The translations under genes and the position numbers were made by a program. From Escherichia phage Jgk1: DNA of 64,000 nucleotides. The notes under the pieces were generated by a model. That model was not told the origin of the DNA. It made no database searches and worked only from the letters and a program-made list of their open reading frames with translations. Position 1 is the first letter of the stretch. Every line of letters starts with the position of its first letter. The stretch lies in the sequence record PV292302.1; one strand, given 5' to 3'. Shown one piece after another: positions 36,845-37,481 of the stretch.

Positions 36845-37481
36845 ACATCCTATCAATGAGTACACTTGATTGAGGTCAGAAGATGAAATGAAGCTTCTGT
36901 AAAATGAATCCACAGAGTGTGCTCTTTGATAGTTTTCGTAAGCGATTATGCGGTTTTTTAGAAACGAACCAAAAACATAAATGCAAACGATGATGTTGTT
37001 CTGATGGCTGCTTAATTGCATAACCATTAGTCAGGAGTGAGTCGTCCTGATTATCAAACGACCGTGGAGTTCTCCCGTCCATGTATTAGAAACGGGAGGC
37101 CAACTATGACCAGAGTAGCATGGGGCAAATGCACGGTTAGCTGCCGGGATGAGGGTTCGAATCCCCAGATGGTCAAAGTCCAGACGATATCTGAGTGACT
37201 TTAAAAACAGATGGAGCCAGGTGGAATCCCTGGCAATTAATACATACCATTGGCTTTACAACACAAGTCCAACAGTTGGGCATAGGGCAGCAACCCTATA
37301 ATCAGGTGAACGAGAACTTGTCTGGTAGTTGGTATGTAACCCCAACCGTTTCAGAAGATGCAGGCAAGACCACGCAGCCCGTTGATAAACGTAGTGGCTG
37401 CTGGACAAGATGTAAAACGAGGCGTCGTTACACGCCTATCGTCACCATCTGAAAGGTAAACGGTTTGCAACCGTACTAAAT

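Follow-up and report, generated by a model that had tools for sequence, protein, structure and literature searches.

A transfer-messenger RNA-like message core without a recognised tRNA-like domain, downstream of the tRNA genes of Escherichia phage Jgk1 and in unrelated phages

Introduction

The closest described relatives of the RNA reported here are bacterial transfer-messenger RNA (tmRNA; SsrA, Rfam family RF00023) and its two-piece, permuted form. The RNA was found in Escherichia phage Jgk1 (sequence record PV292302.1), of which one stretch of 64,000 nucleotides (nt), here called the window, was analysed. It lies within positions 36845-37481, which an earlier reading of the sequence (the original prediction) had described as structured and poor in open reading frames (ORFs). 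Positions 36845-37106 (plus strand), downstream of the tRNA array on the same strand, encode a structured RNA, and its core, 36928-37101, is organised like the mRNA-like domain of tmRNA.

Like bacterial tmRNA, the core has a GCA resume codon that follows U(-5) and A(-4), without a start codon, and a tag of about 10 codons that starts with ANDD, ANDE or ANEE and ends with a hydrophobic residue and alanine. The stop codon likewise lies in the loop of a hairpin (H5, helix 5) that is followed by H-type pseudoknots (PK), and sub-threshold Rfam matches fall exactly on the tag region. Unlike tmRNA, the Jgk1 core has no acceptor stem made from its two ends, no G3:U70 pair and no CCA, and it contains two small pseudoknots after the tag where a typical tmRNA has three. 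It also stays below the Rfam gathering threshold, is negative in ARAGORN and does not match host ssrA by blastn in complete E. coli genomes. The tags of the core end in LMAA, LAVA or RVAA, whereas the host tag, ANDENYALAA, ends in YALAA.

The best Rfam match is to the two-piece, permuted tmRNA of Alpha- and Betaproteobacteria and cyanobacteria (RF04321, RF01849-51), in which the coding part is separate. In the permuted genes the coding piece starts with the 5' acceptor strand and is preceded by an acceptor piece (T arm, 3' acceptor strand and CCA); the two-piece molecule is matured by tRNA-processing enzymes (PMC11915505). The phage loci differ from these genes in that neither an acceptor piece nor a complementary strand was found, and in that a promoter stands directly at the core edge in T1-like phages.

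Phage tmRNAs have been searched for systematically. Outside mycobacteriophages, Bacillus phage G and DS6A, an exhaustive search in 2014 detected no phage ssrA (PMC4131195), and for a database update in 2025 the RefSeq viruses were screened with ARAGORN and BLAST (PMC11915505); neither search of viral genomes reported tmRNA from enterobacterial phages (PMC4131195; PMC11915505). The core is not seen by ARAGORN and BLAST, the screening tools of 2025. In contrast to it, the tmRNAs of mycobacteriophage Bxz1 and its relatives and of Bacillus phage G are standard molecules found by the usual tools, and DS6A has the opposite half-molecule, a tRNA-like domain without a message, which shows that a phage can keep half (PMC4131195). 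No description of the core was found in the literature on phage tmRNA, tmRNA-like RNA or permuted tmRNA in phages.

tRNA-like elements also serve as processing punctuation, as in MALAT1-mascRNA and in the stable species 1 and 2 RNAs of the phage T4 tRNA cluster. The Jgk1 locus resembles these cases in that a non-decoding tRNA-like element abuts a structured RNA at a fixed offset in a tRNA-type transcript. It differs from them in that the cleavage is one that we infer, and in that most other phages have a long hairpin without a T arm.

Results

The tag reading frame (Table 1) opens with the resume G at 36983, in the context ACAUAAAU directly followed by GCA; U at -5 and A at -4 are of the tmRNA type. 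It translates to ANDDVVLMAA and a stop. Ten sense codons and a stop were present in 128 of the 128 copies examined, and in each of them a resume codon without a start codon opens a short tag ending in a hydrophobic residue and alanine, with the stop in a hairpin loop. The copies comprise 15 peptide variants and 29 DNA variants, the most frequent peptides being ANDDVVLMAA (44 copies), ANEEMYLAVA (29), ANDDLMLMAA (20), ANDEQFLAVA (17) and ANDNTFLAVA (5). Extra alleles at codon positions 1, 2 and 3 number 8, 7 and 18, respectively; synonymous changes are abundant and replacements are conservative (D/E/N; L/M/A/V). Each of the last two codons is GCN or GTN, every base occurring at their third position, and the stop codon varies among TAA, TAG and TGA only. 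The tag frame shows constraint of the coding type. Every copy has an in-frame TAG at -24, within the invariant TTTTTAGAAAC, with no ATG, GTG or TTG after it, so that ordinary initiation cannot reach the frame. A frame that looks selected for translation yet lies out of reach of ordinary initiation is the defining oddity of a tmRNA tag.

Covariation was assessed in an alignment of 77 non-redundant copies, with slid partners and 500 shuffles as controls. In the structural model 91.3 % of the cells were paired, compared to 40-49 % when the partners were slid. Changes on both sides were found in 17 of 35 pairs, a count reached by 0 of the 500 shuffles. Helix 5 was paired in 98.7 % and had both-side changes in 4/4 pairs, its covarying forms including CTGG/CCAG, CTGAT/GTCAG, CGAGT/GCTCG and TGAT/ATCA. 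In stem 1 of PK2, one position has CG in 38 and UA in 37 copies and the next has GC in 37, AU in 30 and CG in 10, and the stem occurs as GTGAGG/CCTCAT, GCAAGG/CCTTGT and CGGGG/CCCCG; stem 2 occurs as CCGA/TCGG, CCAG/CTGG, CCAA/TTGG and GTCG/CGAC. PK3 varies similarly in stem 1 (CGCACT/GGTGTG, CGCAGT/GCTGTG, CGCATT/GATGTG, TGCGGT/ACCGTA) and stem 2 (GCCC/GGGC, GGCGGGAG/CTCCCGCC, TCCCCG/CGGGGA), and its loop is conserved as GTATTAGAAA in Jgk1 and GTGTGATTAATAA in most phages. Pseudoknots downstream of the tag are characteristic of tmRNA, and all four stems of these two H-type pseudoknots covary. The PK1-like region upstream of the resume codon is nearly invariant in sequence (TTTTAGAAAC, AAATGCAAACGA).

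The extent of the core was derived from the ends of pairwise BLAST alignments in 109 unrelated contexts, which form 63 flank clusters. The ends cluster at -50..-70 and +100..+135 relative to the resume G, and this pile-up defines 36928-37101 as the unit that moves between phages. In a permissive Rfam scan the permuted tmRNA family RF04321 matched 36890-37015 with 34.7 bits (E = 1.5e-4; gathering score 47). The alignment skips 106 model positions that hold the tRNA domain, the aligned part being the tag region. RF00023 (threshold 47) matched the window in fragments of 13.2 and 9.7 bits. Of 7 homologous loci that were scanned, 6 gave sub-threshold tmRNA matches again, the exception being HK620 (L005), for which none was listed, and ARAGORN called no tmRNA in any of the 7; taking the window and these loci together, they consist of RF04321 at 22-35 bits plus fragments of RF01850 and RF00023. 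The core RNA probably works in the manner of the message half of a tmRNA, from which it is probably derived.

BLAST finds the tag-region segment, with 75-97 % identity, in 369 records of phages that belong to at least five unrelated groups. Its carriers include N4-like phages, T1-like phages (Sf11, S192, GP-1, CS01), the P22-like HK620, Serratia phage KNP4, Ackermannviridae (PhiSH19 and Ag3; Vi1-like) and Grimontviridae (pSal-SNUABM-01). A pattern scan of IMG/VR gave more than 120 further loci, and two GTDB species representatives only had the exact motif. The core is present in 137 of 5426 complete E. coli genomes, always on the chromosome and in prophages only. It is never annotated, either in the phage records or in the E. 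coli genomes.

In three unrelated contexts, two T1-like types (TTGACA-17-TAGATT) and the locus L090 (TTTACA-17-TAAGAT), a sigma-70 promoter lies at the core edge. Its -10 element ends at -62..-64, which places the predicted transcription start at about -56, in the first bases of the conserved core. The Ackermannviridae have TTGTCA-17-TATAGT farther upstream of the core. HK620 and lambdoid prophages carry the element between the Q antiterminator gene and holin S, and in HK620, where pR'/qut is annotated, it is downstream of both. In T1-like phages the rare-codon tRNAs Arg-UCU and Ser-GCU are associated with the core, which fits a role where ribosomes stall.

On the 3' side of PK3, at +116..+130, most of 107 contexts have the start of a tRNA-like element or of a helix with 8-20 bp. 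These helices covary and are very different in sequence (GGTAAGAGCATT/AGTGCTCTTTCC, AATGAGAGCATTA/TAGTGCTTTCATT, TAAATCTGTTTGGG/CCCAAACAGATTTG). Pairing of AGTGCTCTTTCC in the 5' flank with GGTAAGAGCATT in the 3' flank was considered as a helix closing the whole core. It is real in many contexts and was rejected as a general feature, as T1-like phages have no 5' flank and a second copy further downstream pairs with the 3' flank as well. Separately, many loci have long hairpins in which the complementary motifs CAACAGGTAAGAGCATT and AGTGCTCTTTCCGTTGTG form stems of up to 20 bp (for example L005 2438-2520 and 2686-2790, and L023 -130..-58). The hairpins occur on one side of the core or on both and contain variable inserts, in some of which there is a T arm; possible roles are those of processing signals for RNase III or RNase P, or of mobile cassettes.

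In Jgk1 the core is directly followed by a tRNA-like element at 37107-37175. The original prediction had noted a T-arm-like segment, gggttcgaatcccc, which is indeed located at 37153-37166, and had regarded it as an orphan with no acceptor partner. However, TGACCA at 37107-37112 pairs with TGGTCA at 37170-37175 and closes a 69-nt cloverleaf-like element around it. The D arm is GCAU/AUGC and the T arm GGG/CCC, and a further arm, CGG/CCG, carries a loop of 7 nt. Conservation of the element extends to three other N4-like phages. Its acceptor has 6 bp and its T stem 3 bp (5 bp in the N4-like contig L043), two extra bases precede the 3' acceptor strand, and the triplet at the anticodon position is AGC, GGC, AAC or GAT in four homologues. 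The short T stem, the extra bases and the varying loop triplets mark it as degenerate and non-decoding; neither ARAGORN nor the Rfam tRNA family (RF00005) calls it. From its anatomy and position, it probably serves as a processing signal and determines where the core RNA ends on the 3' side.

Several candidates for a tRNA-like domain of the core were considered and rejected. GATAGTT, at the 5' end of the core, was tried as an acceptor strand; of 120 contexts only 27 had AACTAT or ACTATC downstream, and the positions were scattered. ARAGORN with lowered thresholds (ps80, ps70) recovered the tags with inconsistent "permuted" boundaries, and these calls were therefore not trusted. A heuristic search for a T arm with acceptor pairing around every copy gave upstream complements to downstream acceptor strands (at -126 and -49), which were rejected as a general rule. 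The PK3 loop was tried as a 5' acceptor-like strand, since ATGTATTAG pairs with TTAATACAT, followed by ACCA, at about 37237-37249. This pairing was judged to be due to chance, as the partner positions are inconsistent elsewhere and it is absent from Bp4, KKP 3715 and KP8. As to a permuted two-piece tmRNA, no acceptor piece or partner strand was found at the locus, and the 34.7 bits lie below 47. KP8 has, besides a tmRNA-like core, a tRNA-like RNA (L004 1583-1657, annotated as tRNA-OTHER) with the acceptor GGGCAGT/ACTGTCC, G3:U70, A73 and CCA. Its anticodon loop is 4 nt, making it an alanine-type acceptor that cannot decode, and the Jgk1 window has no counterpart of it.

The features of the stretch are collected in Table 1. 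The window is that of an N4-like phage (Schitoviridae) close to Gamaleyavirus (Bp4, KKP 3715); the ORF for the virion RNA polymerase (3447 aa) is at 39876-50219 on the minus strand, and five plus-strand tRNA genes (Tyr, Asn, Pro, Gln, Ile) are at 36349-36844. Conservation of the DNA across 36845-37481 is a mosaic of pieces of 40-200 nt. KKP 3715 matches 36850-37239 along its entire length with 90.5 % identity (BLAST). The leader hairpin covaries, its counterparts being CAGGGA/TCCCTG in KKP 3715 and CGGAAGC/GCTTCTG in the locus L084.

The original prediction had seen no convincing ORF in the stretch, and this holds: the longest have 85, 70 and 68 aa and none has a significant Pfam match, the 68-aa ORF giving two sub-threshold matches (E = 0.05 and 0.2). 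Neither Rfam at the gathering score nor ARAGORN made any call between 36845 and 37481. The suggestion that the region holds degraded or split tRNA genes, or else a longer structured RNA, proved right in part on each side, since 37107-37175 is a degenerate tRNA-like element and a longer structured RNA, 36928-37101, is the main content; that it is of the tmRNA-message kind had not been recognised. Whether intact tRNAs occupy the same position in relatives, a check proposed there, gave a mixed outcome. Bp4 has a different tRNA-like element, called tRNA-Cys(aca), where the T-arm element would be, a replacement of 210 nt takes this position in KP8, and Moo19 lacks the whole block.

Table 1. Features of the Jgk1 stretch 36845-37481 (all on the plus strand; w/ denotes pairing)
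Feature	Position	Sequence or remark
5' leader	36845-36927	spans the CCA end of tRNA-Ile to the conserved core
Conserved 20-mer	36845-36864	ACATCCTATCAATGAGTACA; follows the last tRNA in Bp4 and KP8 too
Leader hairpin	36877-36882 w/ 36894-36899	CAGAAG/CTTCTG
5' flank motif-like segment	36917-36932	GTGTGCTCTTTGATAG; starts in the leader; resembles AGTGCTCTTTCC, the 5' flank motif of other phages
tmRNA-like messenger core	36928-37101	PK1-like region, resume codon, tag frame, H5, PK2, PK3
PK1-like region	36932-36980	upstream of the resume codon; pairings proposed
Proposed PK1 pairing	36932-36936 w/ 36961-36965	GTTTT/GAAAC
Proposed small hairpin	36936-36945	tCG-taag-CGa
Proposed PK1 pairing	36946-36950 w/ 36976-36980	TTATG/CATAA
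Resume codon and tag frame	36983-37015	GCA AAC GAT GAT GTT GTT CTG ATG GCT GCT TAA
Hairpin H5	37001-37030	CTGATGG (37001-37007) w/ CCATTAG (37024-37030); stop codon in loop
Pseudoknot PK2	37031-37062
PK2 stem 1	37031-37036 w/ 37045-37050	TCAGGA/TCCTGA
PK2 stem 2	37041-37044 w/ 37059-37062	loop GTCG/CGAC
Pseudoknot PK3	37063-37098
PK3 stem 1	37063-37068 w/ 37078-37083	CGTGGA/TCCATG
PK3 stem 2	37072-37077 w/ 37093-37098	CTCCCG/CGGGAG
Degenerate tRNA-like element	37107-37175	directly abuts the core; contains the T-arm-like segment
Module B	37177-37244	AGTCCAGACGATATCTGAGTGAC ... CCAGG-TGGAATC-CCTGG; hairpin 37217-37233
Two hairpin modules	37403-37474	AGGCGTCGTTACACGCCT, about 37420-37437; ACGG-TTTGCAA-CCGT, 37460-37474

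Downstream of the tRNA-like element the stretch contains further small modules. Module B is conserved alone, with 88-98 % identity, in pSb-1, PMBT57, OLB145, BEU13, 1-6af, Kp4865-1, phi_KPN_H2 and Segz_1, of which pSb-1, PMBT57, Kp4865-1, phi_KPN_H2 and Segz_1 are unrelated phages of 40-76 kb; it is a small module that is mobile on its own. The AGGCGTCGTTACACGCCT module (40 nt, about 37403-37448) is 90-94 % identical in Acinetobacter, Achromobacter and Hafnia phages and, in the same range, in P22-like phages (CUS-3, IME10). The anticodon-arm-like hairpin ACGG-TTTGCAA-CCGT is perfect, as had been proposed, and lies one base further on, at 37460-37474 rather than 37459-37473. It is kept with compensatory changes in L043 (GCAGG-TTGCA-CCTGC). 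Both this and the AGGCGTCGTTACACGCCT hairpin have weak terminator-like scores on the minus strand.

Other tRNA-like elements were observed around the stretch, all on the plus strand. One, at 36594-36685 between tRNA-Pro and tRNA-Gln, was called by neither ARAGORN nor Rfam; A and CCA come after its acceptor, GCGTCGT/GCGGCGT, and it also has a D arm, a T arm (GGGAG-TGCAAGT-CTCCT) and a long extra arm. Element A of the original prediction (37482-37610) is a 129-nt tRNA-like RNA with the acceptor TCCAGGA/TCCTGGA followed by A and CCA, the T arm GAAGG-TTCGATT-CCTTC and an arm loop GTTCATG with UCA at the anticodon position. An element of this type directly follows the core in the N4-like contig L033 (+118), and in Ackermannviridae a similar 130-nt tRNA-like RNA with a CCA end comes after the core. 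A mini tRNA-like element at 37697-37760 (GGGGGCG ... CCAGA-TGAGACT-TCTGG ... CGCCCCT, then A and CCA) is 87 % conserved in KKP 3715. A strong intrinsic terminator at 38259-38288, an 11-bp stem followed by TTTTATTT, lies just ahead of an ORF at 38295 and closes the gene-poor array of tRNAs and small RNAs of about 1.9 kb.

Discussion

We put at slightly better than even the chance that the core is a tmRNA-like messenger module without a tRNA-like domain, which intervenes in the trans-translation of the host. The core RNA would be released from a polycistronic tRNA-type transcript by tRNA-processing enzymes, its 5' end being set by 3' processing of tRNA-Ile and its 3' end by an RNase P cut at the abutting element 37107-37175. 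In other phages a long hairpin or a promoter of its own would replace tRNA processing. In the mode that we consider most likely, stalled ribosomes would be offered the phage tag (A)ANDDVVLMAA in place of the host tag. The C-terminus (LMAA, LAVA) and the middle of the phage tag differ from the host tag at residues that govern proteolysis (ClpX, SspB), and the altered C-terminal and SspB-type recognition residues would change the fate of rescued proteins during infection.

Several observations weigh against this reading. Its weak link is how a ribosome would be entered without an alanyl-tRNA-like domain of the RNA's own; to our knowledge, trans-translation needs tRNA-like and mRNA-like domains in one molecule or in a base-paired complex. 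No canonical tRNA-like domain was found, ARAGORN giving 0 in 109 contexts and Rfam only 13-nt T-arm fragments in the window and the homologous loci. No acceptor stem with G3:U70, A73 and CCA was found anywhere in the 64-kb window, and GATAGTT has no conserved partner. Among 107 contexts there are only 19 in which the 3' helix encloses a tRNA-like element with a T loop, and the processing sites are deduced from anatomy only. A PK1 can be drawn and shows no covariation in the 77 copies, its stems being invariant or lying in columns that are shifted between groups. The folding energy of 36917-37176 as a single sequence is ordinary (z = -0.28), and significance must therefore come from comparison with other genomes. 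As no tRNA-like domain was found, the element was not filed as a tmRNA.

A more specific and clearly less probable proposal, which we regard as tentative, is that the core is a stand-alone tmRNA message module whose tag frame is translated without a covalently linked alanyl-tRNA-like domain, which would make it a new class of RNA. Possible routes would be action in trans with a tRNA-like RNA or with host tmRNA-SmpB, or placement of GCA in an empty A site driven by the pseudoknots.

It is rather unlikely that the element is a true tmRNA, of one or two pieces, with an unrecognised tRNA-like domain. The abutting element (37107-37175 or its counterparts) could be the acceptor domain, in a new order with the message 5' and the tRNA part 3', or a strand upstream of the core could close onto the 3' acceptor strand of that element in the ordinary topology. 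The tRNA-like element or helix at a fixed offset after PK3 in most contexts is in line with such a molecule, as is a second perfect 7/7 upstream complement to the same 3' acceptor strand in some families (GGACGGT at -126 in pSal-SNUABM-01, GCTGTTT at -126/-124 in Ackermannviridae, and one at -49 in L090). In PhiSH19 the RNA from -126 to CCA would be about 380 nt, the size of a tmRNA, and the predicted 5' end of the T1-like RNA, AGATAGT, matches the downstream tRNA-Ser acceptor strand GGATAGT at 6/7 positions. However, the candidate pairings have A3:U70 or U3:G70 and never G3:U70, and a 7/7 match within about 200 nt is expected by chance about 0.2 times per context. The -126 strand of Ackermannviridae sits in an upstream hairpin that itself covaries (GTTTGAGTCC/GGACTCAAAC to GTTTGGGCA/TGCTCAAAC), and the transcripts of T1-like phages and L090, predicted to begin at the core edge, would have no upstream strand. 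The T loop is limited to the 19 contexts mentioned, the anticodon loop and T stem of 37107-37175 are degenerate, and RNase P would remove a 5' extension on the acceptor stem.

Slightly less likely again is an untranslated decoy or sponge that mimics the message and pseudoknots of tmRNA. Its target would be a factor such as ribosomal protein S1, RNase R, the SmpB tail or a nuclease, whose titration or misdirection would damp host trans-translation or a defence that targets tmRNA. Such a role would suit an RNA with no detected tRNA-like domain, no means of starting translation and strongly conserved loops (TTTTTAGAAAC and GTGTGATTAATAA), and it has a precedent in DS6A, which has the tRNA-like domain only, a similar molecule being inhibitory to tmRNA (PMC4131195). 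The 128 copies nevertheless vary with period 3, keep exactly 10 codons, exchange stop for stop and replace residues conservatively. A pure RNA mimic predicts none of these coding-type patterns.

That the stretch consists of decayed tRNA genes, spacer and processing or terminator hairpins without a function of their own is very improbable: the degenerate 37107-37175, the mosaic region that is dispensable in Moo19 and the weak terminator-like hairpins agree with decay, which could apply to parts of 37245-37480, but for 36928-37101 it is contradicted by 75-97 % identity across unrelated families, covarying pseudoknots and a conserved frame. Least probable of all are small proteins from the ORFs of 29-85 aa on either strand, since those present (85 aa at 37195-37452 on the plus strand; 70 and 68 aa on the minus strand) have no significant Pfam match and no consistent annotated gene in related records, the other two forward frames over the core differ in length between copies, and conservation follows the RNA helices.

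If the tmRNA-like messenger module is what we propose, phages tamper with ribosome rescue far more widely than has been thought, the well-studied coliphages included, and if the stand-alone form of the proposal is true, they rewrite the outcome of ribosome rescue. How a tag frame is used without a linked tRNA-like domain is then a mechanistic question of its own. Some relatives do without the element, and its tags are distinctive enough to be sought by mass spectrometry. In hundreds of genomes the RNA is at present unannotated, or its place is mis-annotated with hypothetical proteins or odd tRNAs. Some lambdoid and P22-type phages need host tmRNA for growth, and the core may bear on this dependence.

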